DNA of 64,000 bases, taken from assembly GCA_964561155.1 (NCBI GenBank), contig CAZLOI010000001.1, positions 3,958-67,957 on the forward strand, read 5' to 3'. Position 1 is the first letter of the stretch, and each line of letters begins with the position of its first letter. The notes beneath the pieces are model-generated. The model did no database searches, had not been told where the DNA came from, and saw nothing but the letters and a program-made list of their open reading frames with translations. Shown here one piece after another: positions 1 through 62,637 of the stretch. This stretch comes from an uncultured Candidatus Saccharibacteria bacterium (GTDB lineage: Bacteria; Patescibacteriota; Dojkabacteria; J137). A program made the translations under genes and the position numbers.

Positions 1-819
1 AAATATCTGCATTTCCATCTCTACTTCTTTGATAAACTTCTCTCGATCTTTCTTAGGCATTGCTTTGTATCGTTCTGCTTTCTTGAATAGATCTCTTTCC
101 TTCTCTTCTTCTCTAGATTCTGTCTTAAACTTATCTAGTTGATCCTTAATTTCTTTATGAATACCCTGTGGAGTTATTCCATTGTCTGTATTAAATTTCT
201 CTTGGATACTTCTTCTTCGTCTAGTTTCATCAATTGCCAACTTCATAGAATTTGTAATCTTGTCTGCGTACATTAGTACTCTACCCTGTTCATGTCTCGC
301 AGCTCTACCAATAGTTTGAATTAAACTTGTCTGAGATCTTAGGAATCCTTCCTTGTCTGCATCTAATATTGCAACCAAAGATACTTCTGGTAAATCGAGT
401 CCTTCTCTTAAAAGGTTAATTCCAACCAGTACATCGTATACTCCTTTTCTTAAGTCCTTTAGAATCTCTACTCTTTCTATAGTATCGATATCTGAGTGAA
501 GATATTTACTCTTAACACCTTTCTCTATAAGGTAATCAGATAATTCTTCAGACATTCTTTTTGTTAGTGTTGTAACCAGAACTCTTTGTTTCTTCTTAAT
601 ATTGCTTTCAATCTCTATCATTAAATCCTGTACCTGAGATCTTTCCCAATGGCTTTCGGCAAGGAGAGGCATATCGTTATACCCATTCTCGATTAACGAA
701 CTCTTAAGTGAATTAAATCCTTCAGGACGTGTGGGTCTAACCTCTAGTGTTGGATCTAAAAGTCCAGTAGGACGAATTATCTGATATACAATGCCTTGGT
801 AGTCTTTTGGTAAACTCAT
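1..819 (-). CDS. uvrB: UvrB (excinuclease ABC subunit B) C-terminal region; partial at window edge and N-terminally truncated relative to canonical UvrB
   Basis: Minus-strand translation from ATG at 819..817 gives [30 protein letters not shown]...[18 protein letters not shown]...[69 protein letters not shown]...ITPQGI. This is collinear with E. coli UvrB from about residue 395 onward (helicase domain 3 plus C-terminal region). An in-frame TAA lies 9 codons upstream of the ATG, so domains 1a/1b/2 and the beta-hairpin are not encoded here. The ORF runs off the window at coordinate 1. Confidence 0.7.
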
Positions 820-843
820 ATAAAGATTATACCAAAGCACTGC

Positions 844-872
844 TTGTTACGCATTGATCATTCTTATACAAT
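844..872 (+). promoter_or_regulatory. sigma70-like promoter TTGTTA-N17-TACAAT, 6 nt upstream of the ATG of the VanW-domain gene (candidate leaderless start)
   Basis: TTGTTA at 844-849, 17-nt spacer, TACAAT at 867-872, then AAGAGA, then ATG at 879. No Shine-Dalgarno is visible. Confidence 0.3.
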
Positions 873-878
873 AAGAGA

Positions 879-2384
879 ATGAAGAATCTAGCTTTCTATA
901 GTATTGTTGCAACTCTTGTAATCATATCAGGATGCCTTTCGTACTATATATTCGCAAACACATATAAAACTGATCAACCACTCTTCAACTTCCAAGCAAC
1001 AAACTATATCTACGAAACTATAACAGCAGACCTACTTGGTTCCACCTACGTTACTAGCAGCAGATACGTTCCAGCCGAAGAAATAGCTACGGACTACGGA
1101 AGAGGTACAGATATTGGAAAGGTGCTTTCAGAAGCAGTTGGGATAATAACAGGACCCAACGAAAAAGAATTCTATGTCTTTGATACACAATACTTTATTG
1201 AGAACCTTAAGCTTCCCTTTAAAATATCTGCAGATAATAGCGTATATATAGATAAAGATAACTATCTTCGTAATTGTGAAAGAAATACCTACGATCTTAA
1301 GTTCAACTCAAGAAATATTCAAAACGATATAGATCAAGGAGCTTCTTCAATATCTCTTGATTCATATTTAACAAATCCAGAAAGCCTTGAACTGATATCT
1401 TTGTGTGACGAATACAATGTTACAAAAACAAAAGTTACAGCGATGCTTGGTGCATACTTCGAAGATACTAATTTAACTAAATACTTTAAATACTCTGTCG
1501 ATACAAAAAGATTTGAAGTATCTGATACTATACAGATATCTGAAGCAATATTGGAACTTCGAGATGACTTTGCAAGACCACCGCTTGATCCAGTATACGA
1601 AGAAGTGAATAACGCAATATATCTTCTTTCATACTACGAAAATGGATATGAAATAGATGTCGAGCAAACTTTAAGTAATTTAAGCACATTCCTAGAAAAC
1701 CCAGAGAATGGTTTCAATGTAGAAACATATCTAGTGGAACCCACCATTCTTGCATCAAACAAACCAGTTTTTGATTTTTCTAATCAGATATCTGAAGGAA
1801 AAACTAGAATGGAGTTAATTCGAAATGGCTTTACAAACTGGGTTATTCAGTTCGCAGACTTCGGACTATATGAAATACATAACTACGTAATTAATCCAGG
1901 ACAAGAATTCTCTTTCCTAGGTACAATTAGTCCAAGTAACGGGTTAACTAAATCTGGGTTTCCAATAGATGGTGGAATATGTAACGCTACGACTACAATC
2001 TTTAGAGCAGCTTTAGAAGCAGGGTTACCAATTACAGAGCGATATTATCATTACAAGAATGTTCCATCGTATGATTGGCCATATACTATGAATATCGTTG
2101 ATTCAGCATACTATACCGATCCAAAAGTTGACTTAAAGTTTGTGAATGATACGCCGTATCCAATCCTTATGCGTTTTGAGAAGTATCAGGAAGATGGATA
2201 TCAGTACAATACCGTAAAACTTTATACCAGCAAGAACTTTGATGACAGAAAGGTTGATCTTGTTAACTGGAAGAAATGGAATGAGTTTTCTAATACTCAT
2301 TTCGAAGCTTCGTTTGATCGTGTCGTTTATCAAAATGGAGTTAAGTTAAGAGAGGACAACTTCTACAGCAGGTATTTAGATTAA
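879..2384 (+). CDS. VanW domain-containing protein with N-terminal membrane anchor
   Basis: 501 aa with a hydrophobic N-terminus. C-terminal region PGQEFSFLGTISPSNGL...GGICNATTTIFRAALEAGLPITERYYH...DLKFVNDTPYPILMRF matches the VanW family hallmark (PGExFSF ... GGGvCqvSsTlynAAL.aGL.i.eR.nH ... DLkF.N.T..PI.I). Confidence 0.8.
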   Translation: MKNLAFYSIVATLVIISGCLSYYIFANTYKTDQPLFNFQATNYIYETITADLLGSTYVTSSRYVPAEEIATDYGRGTDIGKVLSEAVGIITGPNEKEFYVFDTQYFIENLKLPFKISADNSVYIDKDNYLRNCERNTYDLKFNSRNIQNDIDQGASSISLDSYLTNPESLELISLCDEYNVTKTKVTAMLGAYFEDTNLTKYFKYSVDTKRFEVSDTIQISEAILELRDDFARPPLDPVYEEVNNAIYLLSYYENGYEIDVEQTLSNLSTFLENPENGFNVETYLVEPTILASNKPVFDFSNQISEGKTRMELIRNGFTNWVIQFADFGLYEIHNYVINPGQEFSFLGTISPSNGLTKSGFPIDGGICNATTTIFRAALEAGLPITERYYHYKNVPSYDWPYTMNIVDSAYYTDPKVDLKFVNDTPYPILMRFEKYQEDGYQYNTVKLYTSKNFDDRKVDLVNWKKWNEFSNTHFEASFDRVVYQNGVKLREDNFYSRYLD

Positions 2385-16326: not shown

Positions 16327-16593
16327 ATGGACGATGGAACACAAAACACTAATTCAAATTCAGATACTATAACTAGACTTCAAAATTTAGCGAGAGTAAG
16401 TAGATTTCTTGCAACTCAGATAAATGACTCAACTGAAGAATCCGATTACTTTATAGCAAAGCAATCATTAAAGGATTTCTCAGCTGAACTATTAGGTCTT
16501 CCTCTAGAACCGCAACTCAAAGAAGATATGCGATTGTTTGTAGAATTCTTAAACACATCGCTTGAGAATAAGTACAAATTACATAGAGGATAG
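16327..16593 (+). CDS. hypothetical small protein (88 aa)
   Basis: ORF only. Its 3' end overlaps the convergent Fic-like gene by 15 nt. Confidence 0.2.
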   Translation: MDDGTQNTNSNSDTITRLQNLARVSRFLATQINDSTEESDYFIAKQSLKDFSAELLGLPLEPQLKEDMRLFVEFLNTSLENKYKLHRG

Positions 16594-17619
16594 TCGATAT
16601 TTCGTTCCTCTACCCTGTCCTTCTATCTTTAGAAGATTCTTGTCTACTAGGTCGTTTAGATCTCTAAATGCAGTCATTGTTGAAACATCCATCATATGAC
16701 AATAGTCTTCTCTCTTTATCGAAGGTACTGTTTGTAGATACCTTAGAACCTTTAACTGTCTTGGGTTTAGATCCAAGAAAGGTTGTTTTTTAGATTTCTC
16801 ATCTTCCATTAACAATTCAGATACTGATTCTTTGATATCAAGTAAGTCCTTATTTATGGTATCTAGAAACACTTCTACAAAAGGAGCCATATCGTTACTG
16901 TTTCTTGAAACTCGTAAGCCTTCGATGAATCTTGAGAAATTCGAATACAGGTTCTTTGCAAAAGATGTATATGTCCTTAATGAAAGTCCAGATTTGTATA
17001 GAAGATAATCTATCATTGCGATAGTGGTTACCTTGTTGCCGTAATTGTATGGTGAAATATCAAGAAGCTTATAGAACAAAACTGCAGCTCTTATAAGTGG
17101 TGTTACTGTTGTTGTTGAATTATTGTACCAATCAATCAACTTGCTTAACTCTATTTCAGGTTGTGCGATTTCTTTATTCTTTAGTTCATACCAATCATCA
17201 TACTTGTCAGGAGTATTGTCTGAATATACAGATCTGAAGTTAAGATCATCAAGACTATATATTCCGTTATTCAACATCTTGTTAACTTGCAACAAAATTG
17301 GGGTATCTACTTCTGCATATCCATCTACGGAAGTTGAATGAGTAAATTCTTTTACGATCTTAAAGTTCTTAAGTAGCTGTGCTCTCTCGTCTTTAATCTC
17401 TACTTGTGTTGCTGTAACGATTTTTTCTGCATCTTTTAAATCTATTTCTAAACCTAAGAGCAAAGAAAGATAGAATATATCGTTTGATTTTGCACTCAAT
17501 TGAAGCTTTGATTTAACTCCATTTGAAAGCTCAAGTAGCTGTACAGCAGTTTTATTTGCTTCTATCTTAACTAATCTTGTTACGATTCTGTCGTTGTATG
17601 TAAATTTTGGTTCTAGCAT
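16579..17619 (-). CDS. Fic/DOC family protein with degenerate active-site motif and C-terminal winged-helix domain
   Basis: 346 aa. The C-terminal LNPRQLKVLRYLQTVPSIKREDYCHMMDVSTMTAFRDLNDLVDKNLLKIEGQGRGTKYRL is the typical Fic C-terminal wHTH. The Fic core aligns LIRAAVLFYKLLDISPYNYGNKVTTIAM to consensus ikAalaHyqFeaIHPFxDGNGRvgRlL. The canonical HPFx[D/E]GNGR is therefore SPYNYGNKV (residues 189-197, nt 17029-17055), with H, F, D, second G and R all substituted. Confidence 0.65.
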   Translation of the reverse strand: MLEPKFTYNDRIVTRLVKIEANKTAVQLLELSNGVKSKLQLSAKSNDIFYLSLLLGLEIDLKDAEKIVTATQVEIKDERAQLLKNFKIVKEFTHSTSVDGYAEVDTPILLQVNKMLNNGIYSLDDLNFRSVYSDNTPDKYDDWYELKNKEIAQPEIELSKLIDWYNNSTTTVTPLIRAAVLFYKLLDISPYNYGNKVTTIAMIDYLLYKSGLSLRTYTSFAKNLYSNFSRFIEGLRVSRNSNDMAPFVEVFLDTINKDLLDIKESVSELLMEDEKSKKQPFLDLNPRQLKVLRYLQTVPSIKREDYCHMMDVSTMTAFRDLNDLVDKNLLKIEGQGRGTKYRLSSM

Positions 17620-17631
17620 ATCTTAATTGTA

Positions 17632-19098
17632 TCACAGGGATAATGGATGCCGTCTACACAGAGCTTCGACTTGAGCCTTCAGTAAAGAGAATTCAGAAGA
17701 TTTTGATATAGTAATTTCTTCTAATTTTTCTTGGAATTCTTTGAAGCTCTTAAACTCCAAATTCTTCACAATCCCAATCACTTTATCAACAATTTCAAAC
17801 ACTTTTCCTATCGAATCTTCCTTAAATCCTCTGGTAGTTACAAAAGGGGTTCCAAACCTGACACCGGAGGGTGACACTGGTGACCCTTTTTCAAAAGGAA
17901 CTGTGTTTTTGTTTGTAATTATTCCAATTGAAGCCAATGCCTTGGAAACTACTCTTCCAGAAATAATATCTCCTGATTTGTTTCTTTGATTTGAGAAATC
18001 TACTAATACCATGTGCTTGTCTGTTCCTCCACTCACTACTTTGTATCCTTTGTTAATAAATAATTCAGATAGTTTCTTTGCATTACTTACAACATTCTTT
18101 GCGTATGTTCTAAATTCATCTGTGCTTGCTTCGTATAAGCTTTGGAGTATACCTGCGATACTATGGTTAAAAGGACCACCTAATAACCCCGGCATGACTG
18201 ATTTATTGATTAACTCTATATACTCCTTCTTGCACATTACAACAGCTCCTCTAGGACCTCGTAGCGTCTTGTGAGTTGTAAAGGTTACAAAGTCTGCATA
18301 TGGAAAAGGAGAAGGATGAACTCCACCTGCTATCAAACCTGCCTCATGCGCCACATCTGCAAGGAAAAATACTTTCTTTGAAGTTTGTTTCTCGTATTCA
18401 TCTAGTATCTCCCTAATTCTTTTAAAGTCTGTGAATCTTGTATATGCAGTTCCTCCTGTTATTAGCATCTTTGGATTGTATGTTCTTAGGTATTCACCAA
18501 AGCTTTCATAATCTAGAAGCTGTGTTTCTTCATCAACACGATACTGTACTATGTTAAACACCTTCGAATTGAAATTTGATTTAACACTACCTCCTTTATA
18601 TATACCTGAAACTTCAAGGGTTTCAGACTCTTTTTCTGTAGTATTGTTTTGTTTATCCGAAGCTTTTGCTTCATTATTTTTTGTCTCGTTTTTTGTTTCA
18701 TTTTTTGGTGTATAGCTCCAGCCATGACTTAAATGACCTCCATCTGGAAGATACATTGAAAGAATGGTATCTCCAATATTTAGCACAGCATTATATACAA
18801 CAAGATTCGCAGTACTTCCAGAAAGTACCTGTACATTTGCGTCCCATAAATCAATCAAATCCTCAGGTAGCATTACCTGCTTAACCATTCTGATACACGC
18901 TGCTTCTAGAACATCTACATTCTCATTTCCTTCGTAGTATCTTGCTCCTACATTGCCTTCAGAATATTTATGCATGAATACAGAACCAGTTGCTTCCCGT
19001 ACTGCTTTAGATGTGAAGTTTTCAGAAGGAATAAGATTTATCGTATTCTGCTGTCTTTCTTCTTCTTTTTTGATTAGATTTTTGAGGTCATTATTCAT
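17632..19098 (-). CDS. glyA: serine hydroxymethyltransferase with about 47-aa low-complexity insertion
   Basis: 488 aa. INLIPSENFTSKAVREATGSVFMHKYSEG...GARYYEG and VTFTTHKTLRGPRG (PLP-lysine region) are diagnostic. The insertion SYTPKNETKNETKNNEAKASDKQNNTTEKESETLEVSGIYKGGSVKS lies between the HGW and NFS(K) positions (nt 18577-18717). Confidence 0.9.
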   Translation of the reverse strand: MNNDLKNLIKKEEERQQNTINLIPSENFTSKAVREATGSVFMHKYSEGNVGARYYEGNENVDVLEAACIRMVKQVMLPEDLIDLWDANVQVLSGSTANLVVYNAVLNIGDTILSMYLPDGGHLSHGWSYTPKNETKNETKNNEAKASDKQNNTTEKESETLEVSGIYKGGSVKSNFNSKVFNIVQYRVDEETQLLDYESFGEYLRTYNPKMLITGGTAYTRFTDFKRIREILDEYEKQTSKKVFFLADVAHEAGLIAGGVHPSPFPYADFVTFTTHKTLRGPRGAVVMCKKEYIELINKSVMPGLLGGPFNHSIAGILQSLYEASTDEFRTYAKNVVSNAKKLSELFINKGYKVVSGGTDKHMVLVDFSNQRNKSGDIISGRVVSKALASIGIITNKNTVPFEKGSPVSPSGVRFGTPFVTTRGFKEDSIGKVFEIVDKVIGIVKNLEFKSFKEFQEKLEEITISKSSEFSLLKAQVEALCRRHPLSL

Positions 19099-25476: not shown

Positions 25477-26802
25477 TTAAATGAGAGAACGACCCTCTGT
25501 TCTTGGAAGAAGTTTTATTGAATTTTGTCCAGCAATGTTTCCACTGCTCCATGCCCAACTTAAATTAAACCCTCCAACATCTCCATCTACGTCTAGTATT
25601 TCACCACAGAAGTATAGACCAGATACTAGCTTCGACTCGAGTGTATCTTCATCGATATCCTTGGTATCAATACCACCTGCTGTAAACTCGGCTTCATTCC
25701 ATCCTCTTGTTCCATCAATCTTAACTACAAAGCTTCCTAGTGCATCTACGAGTTGATTCTTTTCAGCTCCCGTTAGAGACTTCACTTTCTTGCTTTGGTT
25801 CAACCCAATTGCTCTTGGGAATGTTTCTGCAAACTTGTTTGGGAATAATCCATAGAGACTTTTATCTAACTGCAGTTCTGGTCTATGATCCCACCTTATT
25901 TGTAACTCCTCTTTTATGTCTTCTTTGCTCTTTCCTGGAAAGAAATTAATCTCAATCTCTACTCCACTTTTCTCTTCTCGATTAATATGAATTGATATTT
26001 CTCTTGAGATATTTAAGATAGCAGGACCTGATAATCCGTATTGAGTAAACATTACATCATCAGTTCTAGTCTTAATTCTCTTCCCATTTATAATTGATGT
26101 TACCTCTGCTTCTAATTTCATTCCCTGAAGGAAATGAGAAAGCGGATTTTTTGATACTAGCGGAAGTGCCGAAGGAACTGGTGTAATTACCTTGTGCCCA
26201 AAGGATTCTGCTAAATCATATCCTGAACCATTTGACCCTAACGCTGGATATGTCTTACCTCCAGCGGATAGAATTAGCTTCTTGCAAGTAAACATCTCCA
26301 TTCTCATTTCCTTCCCGCTTTGATCAAGAATTGTTGTTTTAAGAATAAATTCGTTTTCAGATCTCTTAACAATGTTCTCTACTTGAGTTAGAAGGTGAAT
26401 CTCAATTCCAAGTAGTTTTAACTCTTCTTCTAGTACTGCTGTAATTGTTTTGGCTTGATCTGTTGTTGGGAATAGTTTCCCGATATCTGTTTTTTGTTCA
26501 ACATAGAGCTTCACACCTAGGTCTCCAAAGAATTTTAGTATTTCAGCGTAACCAAATTTTGAAAGTGTAGTATTCGGGAAGCCAGGGTTATTAGTGTAGT
26601 AGTGATTATCTATACTCTTATCTAAATTGACGTTGGTAACATTACATCTACCAGCACCGCATACTAGTATCTTCCTACCTAATGCAAATGTTCTATCTAC
26701 AATAGCTACTGAACTGTATGGATTAGCTCTCTTTGCGGAAATTGCAGCCATTTGGCCTGCAGCTCCTCCTCCGATTATTATTAGATCAAAGTGATTATTC
26801 AT
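25477..26802 (-). CDS. HI0933/BaiN-family FAD-dependent flavoprotein oxidoreductase
   Basis: N-terminal FDLIIIGGGAAGQMAAISA (Rossmann GxGxxG), ILSAGGKTYPALGSNGSGYDLAESFGH, and the C-terminal ILDVDGDVGGFNLSWAWSSG, which is characteristic of this family. Confidence 0.75.
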   Translation of the reverse strand: MNNHFDLIIIGGGAAGQMAAISAKRANPYSSVAIVDRTFALGRKILVCGAGRCNVTNVNLDKSIDNHYYTNNPGFPNTTLSKFGYAEILKFFGDLGVKLYVEQKTDIGKLFPTTDQAKTITAVLEEELKLLGIEIHLLTQVENIVKRSENEFILKTTILDQSGKEMRMEMFTCKKLILSAGGKTYPALGSNGSGYDLAESFGHKVITPVPSALPLVSKNPLSHFLQGMKLEAEVTSIINGKRIKTRTDDVMFTQYGLSGPAILNISREISIHINREEKSGVEIEINFFPGKSKEDIKEELQIRWDHRPELQLDKSLYGLFPNKFAETFPRAIGLNQSKKVKSLTGAEKNQLVDALGSFVVKIDGTRGWNEAEFTAGGIDTKDIDEDTLESKLVSGLYFCGEILDVDGDVGGFNLSWAWSSGNIAGQNSIKLLPRTEGRSLI

Positions 26803-27168: not shown

Positions 27169-27474
27169 TTATGGCTCTCCTTTTTTATCTTTGTATGTTC
27201 CAAGAAGCTTTATAACTTCTTCGAAGACTTTCTCTAGTTCGTGTTCCTTTAACCCCAGGTTCTTAGCCAGTGTTAAAAGCAGTGTGATTAAGATATTCTG
27301 AACACCATCTTGAAGAGTTGCGTTGGAAGTACCAGTTCTAGTGTTGTTTGTTTGAATCTCTATTGCTCCTTCGAACTTTTGATCTACCTTACCTTGTACT
27401 TCGTTAAAAGAAGAATCTAGAGCCTGCGTTACTGCTTCTCTAATTTGTTCTAATCGTTCCCCTGAATTTTCCAT
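27169..27474 (-). CDS. hypothetical protein (101 aa)
   Basis: ORF only. No motif recognised. Confidence 0.3.
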   Translation of the reverse strand: MENSGERLEQIREAVTQALDSSFNEVQGKVDQKFEGAIEIQTNNTRTGTSNATLQDGVQNILITLLLTLAKNLGLKEHELEKVFEEVIKLLGTYKDKKGEP

Positions 27475-54106: not shown

Positions 54107-55129
54107 TTACTGATTTATCAAAAATTTATTCAGAACCATTCCACTTTCTTTGTATTCCTTAGCAAGTTCAAGTCCAATATACCTATAATGCCAAGGCTCG
54201 TATGAATAACCTGTTTCAGAAGTCTTGTCTTTAGGATACGAAAGTACATATCCATAGTTATGAGCATTTTCTTGCAACCAAATACCTGCTGCTGTTGAAT
54301 CAAAGGCTTCAGTAAAGTCAAATCCTGAGTCTGCACTCATAAAGTCGACTGCTGTTCCAAGCTGATGCTCGGAATATCCAGCTCTTGCCGAAATCTTATC
54401 AGCTTCTTCAAGTCCTAACTGTCTTACCCACTCAACGTATTGTCTAAACTGAACTATGTAGGATCTATAGCCTGATGCTACTACTATATCCTTTCCCGTA
54501 TCGGTCTTTAAGTTTCGAAGCATAATAGCTAAGGCGTCTGCTGCTTCAGTTCGCAACTTTATTCCAGGAGCATTTGTATATAAAAGCTTATCTACATTTA
54601 GGTCGACTAAATCTATTGGCTCAAACGTTGTATAAAGCTTTACGCCTTTCTTAACATTGGCTCCAAGATCGTTACCATCTACAAATATGTATGGATCAAA
54701 CTCAGGAACATCCCTCATTCCAAGTGGGAATGAAAAGTTCTCTCTGGTTATACTTGGCTTCACTTTTGAAATATTGCCAGATCCATCCTGAATCTCTATT
54801 TCTGGAGTTGTTAACCCTAAAGCTGCATTGAATACTTCCAATACGTATACATTTCTACCATCTTCTGAGGTGTCTAAATAATGTAGTTGATACTTTTCTG
54901 AATTAACTGCACTCACTTCTTCGTCTGCGTATACAAGAAAACTAGTTCTTGGCTGGAGAGTTGTTATATTTGTAAGGGGCAATTCAAGAGTCGGTGCTTG
55001 AGAATCTGCCTCTGTCTGTGTCTGTAATCCTTCACTACTTTGAAGCTTTATTACCAGGAATACTGCTGCAACAGCAGCGATTACAACAAGAAGAGAGATT
55101 AATAGGTTTCTTTTTAGATTTGTCTTCAT
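54107..55129 (-). CDS. peptidase M15 (VanY-like D-Ala-D-Ala carboxypeptidase) with N-terminal membrane anchor
   Basis: ASGYRSY...YSEHQLGTAVDF (SxHxxGxAxD zinc-binding motif) and YSYEPWHYRYIG (ExxH motif). N-terminal TM LLISLLVVIAAVAAVFLVI. Confidence 0.8.
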   Translation of the reverse strand: MKTNLKRNLLISLLVVIAAVAAVFLVIKLQSSEGLQTQTEADSQAPTLELPLTNITTLQPRTSFLVYADEEVSAVNSEKYQLHYLDTSEDGRNVYVLEVFNAALGLTTPEIEIQDGSGNISKVKPSITRENFSFPLGMRDVPEFDPYIFVDGNDLGANVKKGVKLYTTFEPIDLVDLNVDKLLYTNAPGIKLRTEAADALAIMLRNLKTDTGKDIVVASGYRSYIVQFRQYVEWVRQLGLEEADKISARAGYSEHQLGTAVDFMSADSGFDFTEAFDSTAAGIWLQENAHNYGYVLSYPKDKTSETGYSYEPWHYRYIGLELAKEYKESGMVLNKFLINQ

Positions 55130-56493: not shown

Positions 56494-59400
56494 ATGGACA
56501 GAATATTCTCAAGGATCGGAATAGTATTAATAATCACACTGGTACTCGGAGGTTTATCATTAAACAATTCGGGCTCAGTTGCTGCTGATCCTATAGATCC
56601 GACACAGAGAATGTATTTAACAGATGAAATCCACGTGTCCTCTGGGCAATCTGAATCCTCACTTGCATCAGGATATTTAAGTTTTGCCGATGAGTATGGT
56701 TCACCTGGAGAGGATACAGGATATATCTTTGCACACTTGAATTGGACATATCCTACGAGCGGACCTGTAATAGCAGTTAATTCAGTTCCATCTGGATTCA
56801 CACTTGTTGATCAAACTTCATATAATTTAAATGTAAACGATACTGAGAATACAGACATAGAGTATGCCTTTGTGGCTGCTCTCTATGCGTATAACACTAA
56901 TACGTATGAAGATAATGTAAGTTTTGGATTCGACGGAGTATTTACTACAGCTAGTATGCGTGTCGTTCCAGTCGAAGGAGTAGATACTATGACTCCATAC
57001 GCTCCAGTTACTACTAACGGTACTACTGTTTCGCAACCTGAGACAGAGAATGGTGCGATTAGTACTCCTTTGGCCTTTGCTAGTGTTGCATATAACGATG
57101 GTATTGATTTCGCCCCTTGGTTTGAAACCACTGAAATCCCAACAAGTAATTACGACTGTTACCCATGTCAGTACAATGTAATCTATACGCAAACTGAAAC
57201 TGATGACACTGAAATGCCTCAGGTTTCTATCGAGGACTATTCTTTTCAGAGTGTCGATGCCCCTTATTCACAAATTGCTGTGCAATTAAATTTTGTAGAA
57301 TTCGGTACACCACAATTAACACTTGACTCTGCTACTCTTGAAGATTTCATGCTTGTAGGATCTGGTACGGCAACGACTAGTGGAGGTGCATTTATAGTTG
57401 ATGATCTGTTTTGTGATGTATGGGATCCAAACCTTAGTCAATACGTCAACATGTCAAACTGTGCTACTCCTGATGATGGAACATACGATTCAGCATTTGA
57501 AGTTTATGATATTAGTTTAGATATGACGGGTTCGGCTGCCGGAACATACAGTCTTGAGTTATTGTTTGATGAATATAATACAGCATCAGGAAATAGCAGT
57601 CCAACCCCGCTTGTAGAACTCGAAATTATTATGGATGAGTTTGGAGATGGTACAGTTGAGCTTCTAGGTGGTAGTGGGGTATTCGAAGTAGTTATCGATA
57701 CAGGACCAACAGTGGTTGGCAACGACGTAACAGTAACAGGACACGCTACATCTCAAGGAGGAGCGTACAATATATCTGATTTTGAATTTTACGTAAACGC
57801 TCAGTTTGTTGATATAAACGCTGAAGATGGATCATTTGATGAACCAATAGAAGAATTCACTTGGACTCTTAATGATCTAGCCGTCGGTAGCTATACACTA
57901 GAATTCTATGCATATGAATCTGATGGAGTTACAACAAATTGGACAATAGATTATGGAGGACCTGAAATTAGAACCTTTGACATACTACCTTCTGTCGTAC
58001 AGGTATCGCTAACTTCAGGACCAACTGTTGTTGGAAGAGAAGTTACAGTTGTTGGAGAAGCTACAGCAAGAGATCCTGCATGGCAAGTAACTGATGTTTT
58101 GTATGAAGTAAGAAATGCTTCTGGAGGTGCAGTTTATGCTTCTGGTTCAGTTCCTGCTACAGATGGAAACTATGATGGTGAACAAATAGAAAGTTTTACC
58201 TTTGTTCTTGACGATATACCTAACGGAGACTATTTACTGGATATTTGGGCTACAGAAGATGACTTTGGAGCAGGTACTGGTACTAGTGATGAACTAAATC
58301 TAAACTTTGAAATATTTATCGCCCCAGCTTTAGACTTTACTATAACTGGTCCTACAACGTCTGGAACAAGTAGTTACGTTCACTTCGAAGGTACATTAGA
58401 AGACACAGCTCCGTATAATATTGACAGAATATATTACACAGTAGAAAGTGGACCTGAAATAGATATACTTCCTGTTGATGGAGTATTTGATGAGTCTTTA
58501 GAAGAATTTGAAATTGATGCTGGTCCATTCTTTGATGGAACATTCAATGACATAAGGATCTATGGTGTAAATGAAATCAATTCAAGTATTCAGGAAACAT
58601 TCCTCAATACAACAGTAAACAATTCAAGTACAGCAGCAGACTGCGAACTAAGTAACCACGCAACTCCCACAAACGATACAACACCTACTCATACAGTTAC
58701 TTGTACTAGTCCAGACAACATAATTAAGATGGAATACAGAGTTGCTCAGGAAGTTGGAGTATTCCAAATACCTTGGACAGATATCCCACAGGGTTCCCTT
58801 TCAGCTGGTTCTTACGGATCTACATCTGTAACAGCAAGTATTACAACTTCTGCTATTCCTGATGGAAACACATCATTTGTAATTAATGCATATACAGGTA
58901 CAGGTAAATTCCATACAAATGAACCGGAAAACTTTCAAACAGGTGTAGCACCTGCACCTTACGATGTATTTGTTGTTGAAGCTACAGACAATAGTGCACC
59001 TACTATCAAACTAAACCCAATACTGCCTAATCCAGTGACATCAACAGCACCATTTATAACTGGAAGCTGTCAGGATGTTCACCCATTTGATACAAACTCA
59101 AATATTGCGACATTGCAGTATAGAATTGATGGTGGAAGTTGGACAACTATTCCTCCACTAAATGCACCTTTAGATACACCTATTGAATACTTTAGTTACC
59201 AATTACCAGAATTAGCAATTGATACATATGTATTAGATGTTAGATGTATTGACTCCGCAGGAAGGGATACAAACGCTCTAGGTGGAAATCAAACACTAAA
59301 CTTTGAAATAATAGCCCAGCCGGATGTTGAACCTGAGGAAGTTATTATTGTAGAAAACTTTACAGATGATAGTTTAAATTCTATCAATGAAACAACAGCT

Positions 59401-62400
59401 ATCTGGGGTAATGGATATATTAGACTAAAGGAAGAGATAGACTTTGATAAGACTTTAATCGACTCTGATGGTTTCGTTGATAGATACGGTTCCGTATTCT
59501 CCGATGAATTCCCATTAGCTGGAAGTGGAGATAACGTATGGTATGCAGTGGACTATGGAGTAAATAACTACGGATTAAAAAGATACAACACACTATCTAC
59601 TGCCATTACTGAGTATCAGAACATTTCTACATCCAGGTTAATAGATGTTGAGCCATTCTCACATGGAGGCATAGACTACGTTCTTGTTACACACGGAGGT
59701 GGACTTGCATTATTGCGAGTAGATACTGAAGCTCTGACAAATGTAACTTACGGTGGTTTACCAACAGCATTCTATCAGCCTAGAGGAATATATAGAGATA
59801 CTAGAAATGCAAACCTTGGATTCTATATTGGGAACGCGGTAACACTTGGAGGAACTGCAAATACATACTACTTAGACCTAAACGGTACTCCTACAACACT
59901 TGGTGATGATACATTTACTTGGTATACAACATCTCCAGGATTCGAACTTGATAATGTTGTTAGATCAGTTCTTGATACAACAAACAATGTACTGTACCTT
60001 GCTCAGTTTGGAGATGGATTGATTAGAATTGACGATGGTGGAACTCCTCTAAACTTAGGTGATGACACTAGAACGTTATTTGATTTCAATGACTTTGCTG
60101 ATGCAAGTACTATCTCAGGACTTGTTGTTGACCCTGCAGACGATGGTCTATTCATTACAACTCATTTAAATCAATCTAGACTATTCTACCTTGATGCAAA
60201 TGGGACACCTTTAAACGGTGCTGACGATACAGTTACTCAACTTGCAGATACATTAGACTTACTACAACAAAGAATTGATAACCTAGTATTCGTTGAAGGT
60301 CCTGAATATGTTGGAGGACAACTGTTCATGATGACTAGAACTGGAAAGCTATTCTACTACAATACAAACGGTACATATAGCCAAGCATCTGACGATACAG
60401 AAATACTTTGGGAAACAAATGAAGGATTATTCCCAGAATACATCTCTGATATCTATGTAGCTGACTACAACACAGTGTATGGAAACTTCCAGCATACTGG
60501 TATGTCTAGAATTGATCTAAACAGAAGTTGGGAGGATACAGGAGATGCTGTAACTATCTCAATTCCACCTGAAGTTAGACTTATTGTTAACAACATTAAC
60601 CTAGAAGACGTGCTTGTTGGTCCACTTCTTGAAGACGTAGATGGATTACAGGAACCTAATAGTGAATCAGTTGGAGTTCAGTATTTTGTCTCAATTGACG
60701 ATGGTGTTACATATGACGAATTAACAGTTGGAGAACTTAAGACAGTTCTTGAAGAAGACTATAGATTGAAACTAAAGATCACTCTTACAAAGATTGGTTT
60801 AAATAGTAAGACACCAATTATCGAAGGATTTACTCTTGCCTATGGGGCATACGAAGGCCCTATAGCACCTGAAGATGTTGATAGTTTAGACATTGTAGTC
60901 TCTCCTACTACATTCAATACAGATACCAACTTCAATATAACAGTACGAGCTTTGGATATTCTAGGTTTCCCAGTAGCTAGTGTAGATGATGTAGGTTCTA
61001 TGCAATTAAAAGACTTTGTTACAGATGCGAATGTTGATGCATTAACACCAATAACTCTAGACTTTAATGATGGTGTAGCTACAATTACAACTGCACAAAT
61101 TAGCCAGGCGGGATCTTACAAGATTACTGCTACTCACGGAGCAGAATCAGTAGATTCAGTTCAGCTAACAGTAAATCAAGGACCACTTCCAGACCCAGAT
61201 CCAGAGCCTGGAATAACTCATACATTATCATTCTTTACAGATACTCCTACAATTCAAAAAGGAAACGCAGCAATCCTTACATGGAATACAACAAATACTG
61301 TATCAGCAACCATTCAAGGATATGGTTCAGTTCCTGTAAATGGAAACTTGTCTGTGTCACCTGAAGTAACAACTACATACTACATAACAGCATTTGATGC
61401 AGAGGGAGATACATTAACCGCATCACTTACTATTACTGTTGTAGATGGTGTTGGAAGTCAGACACCTGTTTCAACTCCACTAGATGATGAAGGGAATCCT
61501 ATTCCACTAGAACTAATCGTTCCTGATGATTACATTGAAGTCTTAATAGGTAACCCAGTTACAATCACATGGACTACTGAAGGTAATCCAGACAGTGTTT
61601 ATATCGACTATCTTGGAAGAAACGCAACTAGCTCAGGAAGCTTTGAGTTCTACCCAGATCGAGACATTGTAATTACAATTACTGCTACAAGAGGAGGTGA
61701 AACTATTACCAGAACAATAACTATTAGAGTTATCGATGGATTACCAAATCCATATACACCTGCTCTAGTTGCTGCTACTGGTATCTTATTAACTAGCTTA
61801 ATGACTGGCGGAATTGCACAGTACTTCTCATTGTTCCTAGGATTAGTATTATTCAGAAAAAGAAGATACTGGGGTGTTGTTTACAATGCTTCGAAGTACC
61901 TACCTATTCCATTCGTAACAGTACGTGTGTACAAAGTTACAATGAAAGCAAAGGAATATGTAGCTCAAACTGTTACAGACCTTGAAGGTAAGTATGGAAT
62001 TCCTGTTGGAATTGAAGGTGAATATCAGGTTGAATTCATTCACGATGGATATAGAACTGAAGTTAAGAACCTTTCTATTCAACAGAACTCAGACATCATT
62101 CTAGATGTTGGTATGATCGAACTAGATACTGAAGGTATGCCATTAAGTAGCAAGATTAAGATATTCTTTAAAGAGAATTCCCCTACAATCATGCAGTGGT
62201 TAAGAGTTGCAATCATTGCCTTAATGCTTGTTGGTGCATACATTACTCTACAGGTAATAAGTCTATCACCTCTAGCTATTAACTATATTGTTCTTGTACT
62301 CTACGCTGTTGCAATAGTTACTCAAACTATTGTTCTCTTGAGTCCATACATTAATGTTAAGCGAGGTAAGGTTGTTGAGATTTCTTCTAAGAGACCTGTT

Positions 62401-62637
62401 AAAGGAGCTGTATTTAGAATTCTTGGAGACAATCAAAAAGCTACACAAGGCGTTGAAAGCCTTTCATTCACAAATGACTATGGAGTACTTAAGATTAGAG
62501 TTGCTCCAGGTAAGTATGCATATCAGGTATCAAAACCTGGGTATGAGGCTAACACTGGTGAAATGAGAATAGATGAGTCAGGAAAGATAACTGAAACGAT
62601 CTATATGACTAAAGGATCAGGAGGCTTTGGATCATAA
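56494..62637 (+). CDS. giant (2047 aa) cell-surface protein: signal peptide, N-terminal domain, Ig-like tandem repeats, beta-propeller-like repeat region, Ig-like pair, and C-terminal TM helices interleaved with two PEGA/carboxypeptidase-regulatory-like domains
   Basis: Uninterrupted 6.1-kb ORF. N-terminal MDRIFSRIGIVLIITLVLGGLSLNNSGSVAA. About 100-aa repeats share V(T/V)G.AT...Y.V......DG.FDE..EEF.F.L..L..G.Y.L...A. Four to five repeats spaced about 50 aa apart read LDLNGTPTTLGDDTF / IDDGGTPLNLGDDTR / LDANGTPLNGADDTV / YNTNGTYSQASDDTE. C-terminal segments TLSFFTDTPTIQKGNAAILTWNTTNTVSATIQGYGSVPVNG...TTTYYITAF form a PKD/Ig-like pair. TM segments are ALVAATGILLTSLMTGGIAQYFSLFLGLVLF and IIALMLVGAYITLQVISLSPLAINYIVLVLYAVAIV. 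PEGA-like blocks are VRVYKVTMKAKEYVAQTVTDLEGKYGIPVGIEGEYQVEFIHDGYRTEV and GAVFRILGDNQKATQGVESLSFTNDYGVLKIRVAPGKYAYQVSKPGYEANTGEMRI. Confidence 0.75.
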   Translation: MDRIFSRIGIVLIITLVLGGLSLNNSGSVAADPIDPTQRMYLTDEIHVSSGQSESSLASGYLSFADEYGSPGEDTGYIFAHLNWTYPTSGPVIAVNSVPSGFTLVDQTSYNLNVNDTENTDIEYAFVAALYAYNTNTYEDNVSFGFDGVFTTASMRVVPVEGVDTMTPYAPVTTNGTTVSQPETENGAISTPLAFASVAYNDGIDFAPWFETTEIPTSNYDCYPCQYNVIYTQTETDDTEMPQVSIEDYSFQSVDAPYSQIAVQLNFVEFGTPQLTLDSATLEDFMLVGSGTATTSGGAFIVDDLFCDVWDPNLSQYVNMSNCATPDDGTYDSAFEVYDISLDMTGSAAGTYSLELLFDEYNTASGNSSPTPLVELEIIMDEFGDGTVELLGGSGVFEVVIDTGPTVVGNDVTVTGHATSQGGAYNISDFEFYVNAQFVDINAEDGSFDEPIEEFTWTLNDLAVGSYTLEFYAYESDGVTTNWTIDYGGPEIRTFDILPSVVQVSLTSGPTVVGREVTVVGEATARDPAWQVTDVLYEVRNASGGAVYASGSVPATDGNYDGEQIESFTFVLDDIPNGDYLLDIWATEDDFGAGTGTSDELNLNFEIFIAPALDFTITGPTTSGTSSYVHFEGTLEDTAPYNIDRIYYTVESGPEIDILPVDGVFDESLEEFEIDAGPFFDGTFNDIRIYGVNEINSSIQETFLNTTVNNSSTAADCELSNHATPTNDTTPTHTVTCTSPDNIIKMEYRVAQEVGVFQIPWTDIPQGSLSAGSYGSTSVTASITTSAIPDGNTSFVINAYTGTGKFHTNEPENFQTGVAPAPYDVFVVEATDNSAPTIKLNPILPNPVTSTAPFITGSCQDVHPFDTNSNIATLQYRIDGGSWTTIPPLNAPLDTPIEYFSYQLPELAIDTYVLDVRCIDSAGRDTNALGGNQTLNFEIIAQPDVEPEEVIIVENFTDDSLNSINETTAIWGNGYIRLKEEIDFDKTLIDSDGFVDRYGSVFSDEFPLAGSGDNVWYAVDYGVNNYGLKRYNTLSTAITEYQNISTSRLIDVEPFSHGGIDYVLVTHGGGLALLRVDTEALTNVTYGGLPTAFYQPRGIYRDTRNANLGFYIGNAVTLGGTANTYYLDLNGTPTTLGDDTFTWYTTSPGFELDNVVRSVLDTTNNVLYLAQFGDGLIRIDDGGTPLNLGDDTRTLFDFNDFADASTISGLVVDPADDGLFITTHLNQSRLFYLDANGTPLNGADDTVTQLADTLDLLQQRIDNLVFVEGPEYVGGQLFMMTRTGKLFYYNTNGTYSQASDDTEILWETNEGLFPEYISDIYVADYNTVYGNFQHTGMSRIDLNRSWEDTGDAVTISIPPEVRLIVNNINLEDVLVGPLLEDVDGLQEPNSESVGVQYFVSIDDGVTYDELTVGELKTVLEEDYRLKLKITLTKIGLNSKTPIIEGFTLAYGAYEGPIAPEDVDSLDIVVSPTTFNTDTNFNITVRALDILGFPVASVDDVGSMQLKDFVTDANVDALTPITLDFNDGVATITTAQISQAGSYKITATHGAESVDSVQLTVNQGPLPDPDPEPGITHTLSFFTDTPTIQKGNAAILTWNTTNTVSATIQGYGSVPVNGNLSVSPEVTTTYYITAFDAEGDTLTASLTITVVDGVGSQTPVSTPLDDEGNPIPLELIVPDDYIEVLIGNPVTITWTTEGNPDSVYIDYLGRNATSSGSFEFYPDRDIVITITATRGGETITRTITIRVIDGLPNPYTPALVAATGILLTSLMTGGIAQYFSLFLGLVLFRKRRYWGVVYNASKYLPIPFVTVRVYKVTMKAKEYVAQTVTDLEGKYGIPVGIEGEYQVEFIHDGYRTEVKNLSIQQNSDIILDVGMIELDTEGMPLSSKIKIFFKENSPTIMQWLRVAIIALMLVGAYITLQVISLSPLAINYIVLVLYAVAIVTQTIVLLSPYINVKRGKVVEISSKRPVKGAVFRILGDNQKATQGVESLSFTNDYGVLKIRVAPGKYAYQVSKPGYEANTGEMRIDESGKITETIYMTKGSGGFGS
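57697..58623 (+). repeat. three consecutive about 100-aa Ig-like domain repeats inside the giant ORF (protein-level tandem repeat; additional diverged copies downstream)
   Basis: Repeat units begin TGPTVVGNDVTVTGHATSQGG..., TSGPTVVGREVTVVGEATARDP..., TGPTTSGTSSYVHFEGTLEDTAP.... Each contains a DG.FDE.(I/L)EEF core. Confidence 0.4.

Follow-up and report, generated by a model that had tools for sequence, protein, structure and literature searches.

UvrB is among the most conserved bacterial repair proteins, and its ATP site is formed from two RecA-like domains of one chain. Enzymes encoded by two separate genes are known from other systems. The cyanobacterial dnaE-n and dnaE-c are two distant genes that encode the two halves of one enzyme and carry split inteins. 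In Nanoarchaeum equitans, a reduced-genome organism of symbiont type, split genes such as that of reverse gyrase, present as separate helicase and topoisomerase halves, are unlinked and their products are thought to reassemble. Here we describe a partial uvrB gene, termed uvrB-C, found at the beginning of a 64-kb stretch of DNA (the window, the whole stretch that was analysed). We consider it probable, at roughly 0.85, that uvrB-C is one of two genes produced by a split of uvrB in a large Candidatus Dojkabacteria clade, giving a natural two-piece helicase.

The canonical single-chain UvrB of B. caldotenax (1D9Z) and B. subtilis (2D7D/3V4R) has the same fold, helicase motifs IV-VI and UvrB-specific domain (PF12344) as the product of uvrB-C and probably shares the UVR domain with it, while its motifs I-III, beta-hairpin region and domain 2 are found in a separately encoded N-half. 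In contrast to the canonical protein, the split Dojkabacteria form consists of two polypeptides, cut between the RecA-like motor domains and encoded by unlinked genes, and it has an expanded linker, a helical insertion of ~33 aa in domain 3 and a change from E to Y before the QIIRPTG motif. Full-length UvrB from other Dojkabacteria (WS6 OLB20 P0307, P0325, P0270) is one chain of 676-735 aa that shares this insertion and the long linker, with N-domains 60-68% identical, and it is in that linker that the clade of the window is cut. As in N. equitans, an essential multi-domain nucleic-acid enzyme of a reduced-genome, symbiont-type organism is cut at a domain boundary. Unlike in N. equitans, the SF2 motor core itself is cut, with one of the two RecA-like domains of the ATP site on either side, and the organism is a bacterium with unsplit and adjacent-split relatives as intermediates. 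Unlike dnaE-n and dnaE-c, the uvrB halves are free of intein sequences, and any reassembly would have to be non-covalent.

The uvrB-C locus

The uvrB-C coding region occupies positions 1-819 of the minus strand and was recognised as the C-terminal half of a split UvrB from its translation, Pfam matches, orthologue alignment and dN/dS. It starts with an ATG at 819-817 and stays open to base 1 of the window, with 273 codons visible; the 3′ end, ~20-27 codons judging by homologues of 293-300 aa, lies beyond that base. In a tblastn search with E. coli UvrB, residues ~383-640 aligned to window positions 846-19, which places the start of uvrB-C at E. coli residue ~392, in agreement with the residue of about 395 given in a preliminary description of this DNA. 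An in-frame TAA stop, also listed there, was read at 849-847 (minus strand), separated from the ATG by 9 sense codons. A weak tblastn extension upstream through this stop (E. coli residues 383-391 against ‘QAVLWYNLY’) was considered as a vestigial motif III and rejected as insignificant.

The spacer common to uvrB-C and its neighbour spans positions 820-878 and is followed on the plus strand by a gene for a VanW-domain protein (879-2384, 501 aa, Pfam VanW E 3.2e-16), which is not part of uvrB and for which an exact-sequence look-up returned no identical protein on record. The neighbour is divergent, as had been described, but the distance is 59 bp and not 58 bp. The VanW gene begins at 879, so that no room is left upstream of uvrB-C for an N-terminal half, and no UvrB N-terminal similarity was detected anywhere in the 64 kb, in any frame, by tblastn with E. 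coli UvrB (E ≤ 10). The statement of the preliminary description that domains 1a/1b/2 cannot be accommodated upstream is thereby upheld, and a frameshifted N-terminal half immediately next to the gene, a case considered there, was not seen. The divergent VanW/uvrB-C order is also present at four related loci (L001, L002, L005 and L029).

Domains and conservation of UvrB-C

Pfam identified Helicase_C at aa 70-176 (E 2.5e-21) and the full model of PF12344 at aa 183-225 (E 1.5e-21, above the gathering score; window positions 145-273, minus strand), and none of the N-terminal UvrB domains was matched in the ORF, as anticipated for a UvrB that lacks its N-terminus and consists of domain 3 and the C-terminal region. 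Domain 3, the second RecA-like motor domain with helicase motifs IV-VI, covers positions 292-612 (minus strand) according to Pfam, Foldseek and its invariant residues. The top Foldseek matches of the C-half were UvrB crystal structures (rmsd 2.4-3 Å over ~216 columns, 52-58% identity). The equivalents of B. subtilis R506, D510, F527, R540 and R543 are invariant in 120/120 homologues; these domain-3 residues are functionally important and two of the five are essential (PMC3458569).

Two segments at the beginning of the protein are characteristic of the lineage. The ~33-aa insertion that follows the first domain-3 strand (637-735, minus strand) appears as a gap in the phmmer alignment, is missing from E. 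coli and Bacillus UvrB and is present in split and full-length Dojkabacteria UvrB alike; for the isolated C-half, AF2 predicts it as helices 32-44 and 51-54 with pLDDT >90. Ahead of it lies an N-terminal head (752-810, minus strand), conserved in the family and made up of the distal portion of the ancestral linker, the short strand preceding RPTG and the interdomain linker. The head is modelled by AF2 as coil in the isolated C-half, and the equivalent segment of a full-length relative is modelled as a strand (419-422). A family-specific DNA pattern matches the window only at the head and gave 0 matches on viral contigs.

At the other end, a charged linker and the start of the C-terminal UVR domain (domain 4) occupy positions 1-144 (minus strand), as delineated by alignment with the homologues P0001 (300 aa, called from an upstream GTG, 96% identical to uvrB-C) and P0003 (293 aa, 89% identical). 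Since the window edge cuts the 3′ end of the gene, the UVR domain is only partly visible; P0001 and P0003 continue beyond the edge with ‘...QIFADMLEFEKAAELR...’. The UVR domain PF02151 is precomputed for most homologues, including the near-identical P0002-P0009, and ‘ADMLEFEKAAELRD’ is conserved. The remaining parts of a one-chain UvrB, i.e. domains 1a/1b/2 with Walker A/B, the beta-hairpin and the UvrA-binding domain, were found neither in the ORF nor in the window. Because these domains are missing from the ORF and form a separate gene in relatives, the product is a subunit-like UvrB half and not a whole UvrB.

The short form is widespread, with at least 120 protein clusters. The 120 best homologues of uvrB-C are 259-329 aa long, nearly all of them 293-310 aa, are 63-96% identical to it, carry Dojkabacteria or Patescibacteria names and derive from contigs of up to 1.19 Mb. 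Comparison with the orthologues in L001 and L005 gave dN/dS values of 0.027 and 0.029, which are rough owing to saturated dS and are clearly far below 1. Judged from its sequence, uvrB-C is an intact and strongly conserved gene that is not decaying. When the C-half was used as a query against 1.84 billion representative proteins, the resulting list consisted mostly of contig-end fragments and was uninformative for length. The same search yielded full-length outgroups.

The N-half gene in related genomes

Proteins consisting of the N-half only form >100 clusters of 398-441 aa, with ResIII, UvrB_inter and UvrB_3rd and no Helicase_C, in which Walker A, DESH, S/TATP and the YYDYYQPEAY hairpin region are invariant. 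On contig_16963, a chromosome of 1,140,724 bp, the N-half lies at 805,379-806,617 (+) and the C-half at 1,086,116-1,087,015 (-), ~280 kb apart. The closest sequenced relative, CAUJCN01 (GCA_963169855.1), carries a C-half 89% identical to that of the window on contig 2, in the same gene order, and an intact 411-aa N-half on contig 1. Both halves are present in the complete genome AP024679.1, and in five further N/C pairs the longest contig is equally long in both records. Wherever a genome allowed both to be sought, N-half and C-half were retained side by side as a pair of genes.

No main-clade locus contained both halves, either within ±10 kb around the loci or in stretches of ≤8 kb in the genome scan, and in six related contexts the ±10 kb around the C-half contained no N-half. 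The signature of a two-gene UvrB is seen as a C-half of ~295 aa with a start of the type ‘LPK[DN]...’ at the window locus and as an unlinked N-half in relatives. Of the readings put forward in the preliminary description, it is the split gene with its N-terminal half elsewhere that is corroborated, by separate N-half genes of ~410 aa in the C-half-bearing genomes of relatives. Furthermore, the halves co-evolve: in 8 pairs the C-half and N-half distances are correlated (r = 0.75), and the mean identities are 0.705 vs 0.714.

Origin of the split

The linker of full-length Dojkabacteria UvrB has a median length of 32 aa. N-halves end 10-35 aa (median 18) past motif III and C-halves begin 15-23 aa before RPTG. 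In the pairs, the N tail measures 17-19 aa in 7/8 and 30 aa in one, which together with the C head of 15-23 aa amounts to 32-47 aa. The N tail and C head together thus add up to the ancestral linker, and the cut was clean; by this comparison of lengths it lies in the middle of the ~32-aa linker, with no sequence lost. Full-length P0325 already contains, within its linker, the motif ‘LPKNY.G’ of the C-half. In quick NJ trees calculated without support values, 117/117 C-halves and 108/115 N-halves fell into pure clades, and the main clade appears to go back to a single main fission event. Two minor lineages are cut at the same linker, with a 193-bp spacer between the halves in one and two inserted genes in the other. 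We suggest tentatively that the Dojkabacteria linker might be a repeated fission point, with at least three independent cuts of the SF2 core, and that the halves might form a fully functional heterodimer with a donated beta-strand, the assembly of which is perhaps regulated.

Promoter and leaderless start

An extended -10 box, TGGTATAAT, is located at 826-834 (minus strand), separated from the ATG by 6 nt (825-820), with no usable -35 element and no Shine-Dalgarno sequence; the promoter scan found no -35/-10 pair on the uvrB-C strand. The box is placed for a leaderless transcript predicted to start at or near A819. The gene's own promoter of this type had been proposed before, and it is supported by orthologues L001, L005, L008, L009 and L010, in which TGnTAnAAT is conserved 6-8 nt before the start despite differing spacers. 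The arrangement, with a -10 box ending ~5-9 nt before the start and no Shine-Dalgarno sequence, is that of a leaderless gene, and the unlinked N-half genes have the same placement of an extended -10 box before the start. TACAAT is present at 867-872 (+), 6 nt before the ATG of the VanW gene. Throughout the window, -10 boxes 5-6 nt ahead of start codons are common and Shine-Dalgarno motifs almost absent: 17 of the 64 ORFs have a -10 box close before the start like that of uvrB-C, and 3 have SD-like motifs. A promoter special to uvrB-C is ruled out by this window-wide survey, as such starts are the norm here.

A proposed two-piece UvrB and the alternatives

We propose that the ancestor had a single-chain UvrB, in which the linker from motif III (S/TATP) to the ‘QIIRPTG’ strand had lengthened from 16-17 to ~32 residues, and that the gene was then cut in the middle of this linker. 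UvrB-N (~410 aa) would provide the Walker A/B ATPase half, the beta-hairpin that verifies damage, and domains 1b and 2, the latter binding UvrA. UvrB-C (~295 aa) would contribute, besides its head, domain 3 (motifs IV-VI, with the arginine-finger half of the ATP site), the UvrB-specific domain and the UvrC-binding UVR domain. In the main clade, the two genes would later have moved far apart, and each would have an extended -10 promoter of its own that gives a leaderless mRNA, a kind of start signal that is usual in this genome. The two polypeptides are expected to assemble non-covalently into a working UvrB, with no intein involved. The secondary structure of the two AF2 models suggests that the UvrB-C head probably attaches to domain 1a of UvrB-N in the form of a beta-strand, and the ATP site would be rebuilt at the 1a/3 interface. 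Neither uvrA nor uvrC was detected by tblastn in the window or in short flanks from split-clade genomes; over the fetched loci, one match was obtained at an edge, in a genome with full-length uvrB.

The alternative that fares best is that UvrB-C acts alone or with a partner other than UvrB-N, e.g. as a module for regulation or for binding UvrC/UvrA, the role of the N-half being independent. The halves are indeed unlinked and separately transcribed, the UVR domain, a protein-interaction module, is conserved, and the residue before QIIRPTG, E in 81/93 full-length proteins and Y in 108/117 split ones, indicates that constraints changed somewhat after the split. However, the invariant R540/R543 of motif VI and R506/D510 are sensible only beside a Walker A/B domain, both halves are retained wherever both could be sought, and they evolve at an equal rate with correlated distances. 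We therefore regard this reading as unlikely. A retained interaction module acting alone, as contemplated in the preliminary description, need not be invoked and is less likely, since the arginines of the ATP site are kept.

The same description had also considered a decaying repair gene, i.e. a pseudogene fragment left after the loss of nucleotide excision repair. Patescibacteria have reduced genomes and the N-terminal 400 residues are missing at the uvrB-C locus, yet the short form has an equal length and start in at least 120 clusters spanning 63-96% identity, its dN/dS is ~0.03, its motifs, including the DNA- and ATP-site residues of domain 3, are invariant, its promoter is conserved and an intact N-half is kept elsewhere, which makes decay extremely improbable. 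We give equally little credence to an assembly or sequencing artefact, a chimeric join or frameshift masking a contiguous full-length gene: MAG assemblies do contain errors, but the VanW/uvrB-C junction is repeated in independent assemblies from JGI, NCBI and Logan, the window is without N-terminal similarity in any frame, and a closed chromosome carries the halves on opposite strands with 280 kb between them. One database entry, P0121, repeats a UvrB fragment and is obviously a mis-assembly. Finally, protein trans-splicing by a split intein, as in cyanobacterial DnaE, for which two distant loci are the classic setting, can be dismissed almost entirely, as the N tail of 10-35 aa and the C head of 15-23 aa hold neither an IntN (~100 aa) nor an IntC (~35 aa) and Pfam revealed no intein domain.

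Significance

Our literature searches found no relevant paper on split UvrB in Dojkabacteria/CPR. Database names of the halves are inconsistent (‘UvrB/UvrC motif-containing protein’, ‘DEAD/DEAH box helicase family protein’, ‘hypothetical’), and consequently these organisms could be recorded in pathway reconstructions as having no nucleotide excision repair or a broken one. A clade that keeps the motor domains as separate, unlinked and strongly conserved genes implies that their covalent linkage is dispensable in vivo. Moreover, the unsplit, adjacent-split and dispersed-split relatives offer a natural system for studying how SF2 halves pair and how genes undergo fission in reduced genomes. If the tentative reading of a fully functional heterodimer with a donated beta-strand is true, the heterodimeric UvrB would be a natural ‘split helicase’, with its RecA-like domains as separate subunits the assembly of which could be regulated.

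The uvrB-C gene

The minus-strand gene at the window edge, uvrB-C, begins with an ATG at 819-817 and continues without a stop for 273 codons, as far as window base 1. On the same strand it is preceded by an in-frame TAA (849-847) and by a TGGTATAAT box (834-826) with 6 nt between the box end and the ATG, and the adjacent gene, encoding a VanW-domain protein (Pfam), starts at 879 on the plus strand. Pfam places Helicase_C at amino acids 70-176 and the UvrB-specific domain PF12344 at amino acids 183-225 of the product, with no match to the N-terminal domains of UvrB. An E. coli UvrB sequence, serving as a tblastn probe only, aligned to the reading frame with residues ~383-640 and revealed no UvrB N-terminal similarity across the whole 64-kb window. 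Thus the preliminary description, an N-terminally short UvrB with a -10 box near its ATG, was accurate. The 3' end of the gene is also lost to the window edge; close homologues extend 20-27 residues further, completing the UVR domain.

The earlier suggestion that uvrB-C is a decaying gene is contradicted by the uniform short form of its relatives, by the selection acting on it and by its invariant functional residues. The best 120 database homologues (63-96% identity), which carry the names Candidatus Dojkabacteria or Patescibacteria, share the short form without exception; almost all have 293-310 amino acids, and many lie on long contigs of up to 1.19 Mb. Compared with two orthologues, dN/dS was 0.027 and 0.029, ratios still far below 1 with dS saturated. 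In the B. subtilis UvrB structure, R506, D510, F527, R540 and R543 were described as functionally important domain-3 residues, of which R540, D510 and R543 are essential for repair and F527 is non-essential (PMC3458569). Their equivalents are each invariant in 120/120 homologues and are present in the window protein. Furthermore, the close homologue P0003, modelled with AlphaFold2 (mean pLDDT 80.6), has UvrB crystal structures as its top PDB matches (about 216 aligned columns, rmsd 2.4-3 A).

The separate N-terminal half

Up to 10 kb from the C-terminal half (C-half), no N-terminal half (N-half) was found in six related genomic contexts. Metagenome contigs were scanned for a DNA pattern specific to the start of the family's C-halves (the residues preceding RPTG, or C head), Y.G[IV]V.Q[IV]IRPTGLLDP, which matched further short genes and two full-length UvrB genes (loci L014 and L012). 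Both of the latter carry an extra-long linker ahead of 'QIIRPTG' and, as in the C-halves, an unusual ~30-amino-acid insertion behind the first domain-3 strand. Two successive queries, the N-terminal halves of these proteins and then one resulting match, retrieved more than 100 clusters of N-half-only proteins of 398-441 amino acids, which contain ResIII, UvrB_inter and UvrB_3rd without Helicase_C, end 10-35 residues (median 18) past helicase motif III and are annotated as 'DEAD/DEAH box helicase family protein [Candidatus Dojkabacteria bacterium]' or 'excinuclease ABC subunit B'. No variation was seen among them in Walker A, DESH, S/TATP or the YYDYYQPEAY hairpin region.

In relatives, both halves occur within one genome. 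On contig_16963 (1,140,724 bp, ENA and NCBI; chromosome OY969472.1 is equally long) the N-half lies at 805,379-806,617 on the plus strand and the C-half at 1,086,116-1,087,015 on the minus strand, about 280 kb away. The closest relative found, assembly CAUJCN01 (GCA_963169855.1), shares the gene order of the window (VanW, YjeF_N, Na/H exchanger, Asp/Lys-type tRNA synthetase); its C-half, 89% identical to that of the window, is on contig 2 and an intact 411-amino-acid N-half (P0427) is on contig 1. The closed genome AP024679.1 likewise has both halves, and in five further pairs the N and C records have equally long largest contigs. Within the DNA fetched around each locus of the main clade, the Dojkabacteria with unlinked halves, none held both. 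Among eight N/C pairs, pairwise C-half identities correlate with those of the N-halves (r = 0.75), and the means are equal (0.705 for the C-half, 0.714 for the N-half), as is expected for two parts of one constrained protein. Hence the proposal that the gene is split, with its N-terminal half elsewhere, is borne out by relatives, which carry separate N-half genes in the same genomes as the C-half.

Among species-representative genomes, screened with an N-domain pattern of the Dojkabacteria type, 22 species have an N-half-only gene and about 33 a full-length gene. The top-scoring protein of the representative search, P0121 (763 amino acids), carries two copies of one UvrB C-terminal segment on either side of an incomplete N-terminal part and is almost certainly the product of a mis-assembly, circular or at a repeat. 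The signature RDL[YF]IEK...IE[RK]YR, which otherwise marks Dojkabacteria N-domains, is also found in full-length UvrBs with an ordinary short linker from some Planctomycetota (Pirellula MAGs; L033, L042, L060).

Fission point and history

The distance from S/TATP (motif III) to RPTG is 16-17 residues in ordinary UvrBs and has a median of 32 (range 17-47) in full-length Dojkabacteria UvrBs. In split pairs the N-half continues for 17-19 residues after this motif in 7/8 cases and for 30 in the remaining one, the C head comprises 15-23 residues, and together they amount to 32-47. Moreover, the C-half opening motif 'LPKNY.G' is already present within the linker of the full-length homologue P0325 ('...SSELPKNYGGFVEQLIRPTG'). 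Judged from these sequences, uvrB was cut cleanly mid-way through a lineage-specific linker, with nothing lost and nothing added, since tail and head match the ancestral linker in length and the motif lies inside it. A split intein is excluded, because 32-47 residues equal the linker and leave no added sequence. In quick neighbour-joining trees without support values, 117/117 C-halves group together as one clade that sits within the full-length Dojkabacteria, and 108/115 N-halves as one pure clade, which points to a single old fission for the main clade, window included.

The other seven N-half-only proteins group among full-length sequences, and two cases, both less advanced splits, were traced. 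In L095/L096, from two independent assemblies, N-half and C-half (296 amino acids) lie in this order on one strand, with a non-coding spacer of 193 bp (L095:7261-7453) between them. In L097/L098, two paralogous N-terminally membrane-anchored reading frames of 318 and 347 amino acids (L097:7257-9231, and in L098), without convincing Pfam match, separate the halves, all on one strand; just upstream, a 185-amino-acid minus-strand frame (L097:5355-5912) has a weak, sub-threshold IS200-like Y1 transposase match. These C-halves retain the ancestral 'IVEQLIRPTG'. At C-half residue 12 (window 786-784), directly before QIIRPTG, 108/117 split C-halves have Y and 81/93 full-length Dojkabacteria UvrBs have E, a derived change that tracks the main split clade. 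Repeated fission at one and the same linker is suggested, though not proven, by this pattern. Directly upstream of the L095 N-half lies a Fic + HTH gene (343 amino acids, L095:4834-5865); its likeness to the window Fic/DOC + HTH gene (346 amino acids, 16579-17619, minus strand) may be coincidence.

Promoter and neighbourhood

TGnTAnAAT stands 6-8 nt ahead of the start codon in five orthologous C-half loci with differing spacers and 5-6 nt ahead of the ATG in most N-half genes, the promoter of the closest relative's N-half being TGGTATAAT-tcaact-ATG. A -10-like hexamer precedes the start by 4-9 nt, with a peak at 5-6 nt, in 17/64 long window reading frames (for example 13963, 20794, 25477-26802, 27169-27474 and 54107-55129), a Shine-Dalgarno-like motif was seen in only 3/64, and TACAAT stands 6 nt ahead of the ATG of the divergent VanW gene. 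Translation in this genome seems to start mostly in a leaderless or SD-less manner. The proposed placement of the box for a leaderless transcript is supported by its conservation and by this window-wide style, yet as a general style it is rejected as an adaptation special to uvrB-C. The promoter would here mark uvrB-C as an independent transcription unit.

The genes around uvrB-C have been rearranged more than once, in several steps. In other split-clade genomes (L008:9461-9898, L009:9511-9927), ssb, encoding single-stranded DNA-binding protein, replaces the VanW gene as divergent neighbour. A 765-amino-acid DUF8128/DUF87/TrwB-type ATPase is encoded directly downstream in the closest relatives (L001:10960-13257, L005:11234-13531) and presumably also lies just past window base 1. 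Elsewhere in the window, serine hydroxymethyltransferase (488 amino acids, 17632-19098, minus strand) aligns to the Pfam SHMT model as two segments, a sign that this housekeeping enzyme may, like UvrB, carry a lineage-specific insertion. A giant 2047-amino-acid frame (56494-62637, plus strand), with a CarboxypepD_reg-like signal near the C-terminus as its sole Pfam signal, is probably a large surface protein.

A proposed two-subunit UvrB

Two genes, both intact, inherited together and under equal constraint, jointly hold every UvrB domain and motif, and the split uvrB is best described, on sequence grounds, as a naturally occurring UvrB of two subunits, divided between the motor domains. The products would pair as a non-covalent heterodimer in which domain 1a from the N-half and domain 3 from the C-half rebuild the ATP site between them; UvrA would attach to the N-half through domain 2, and UvrC to the C-half through the UVR domain. 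In the P0325 model the split point lies within a coil (406-418) flanked by a helix (394-405) and the short strand 'VEQL' (419-422), whereas the segment matching this strand is coil in the isolated C-half model; hypothetically, the C head could thus dock to the N-half in the form of a strand. A literature search of incomplete coverage found no paper describing a split UvrB in these bacteria. The two-piece UvrB is relevant to work on helicases, DNA repair and genome reduction, and it has a practical bearing on annotation.
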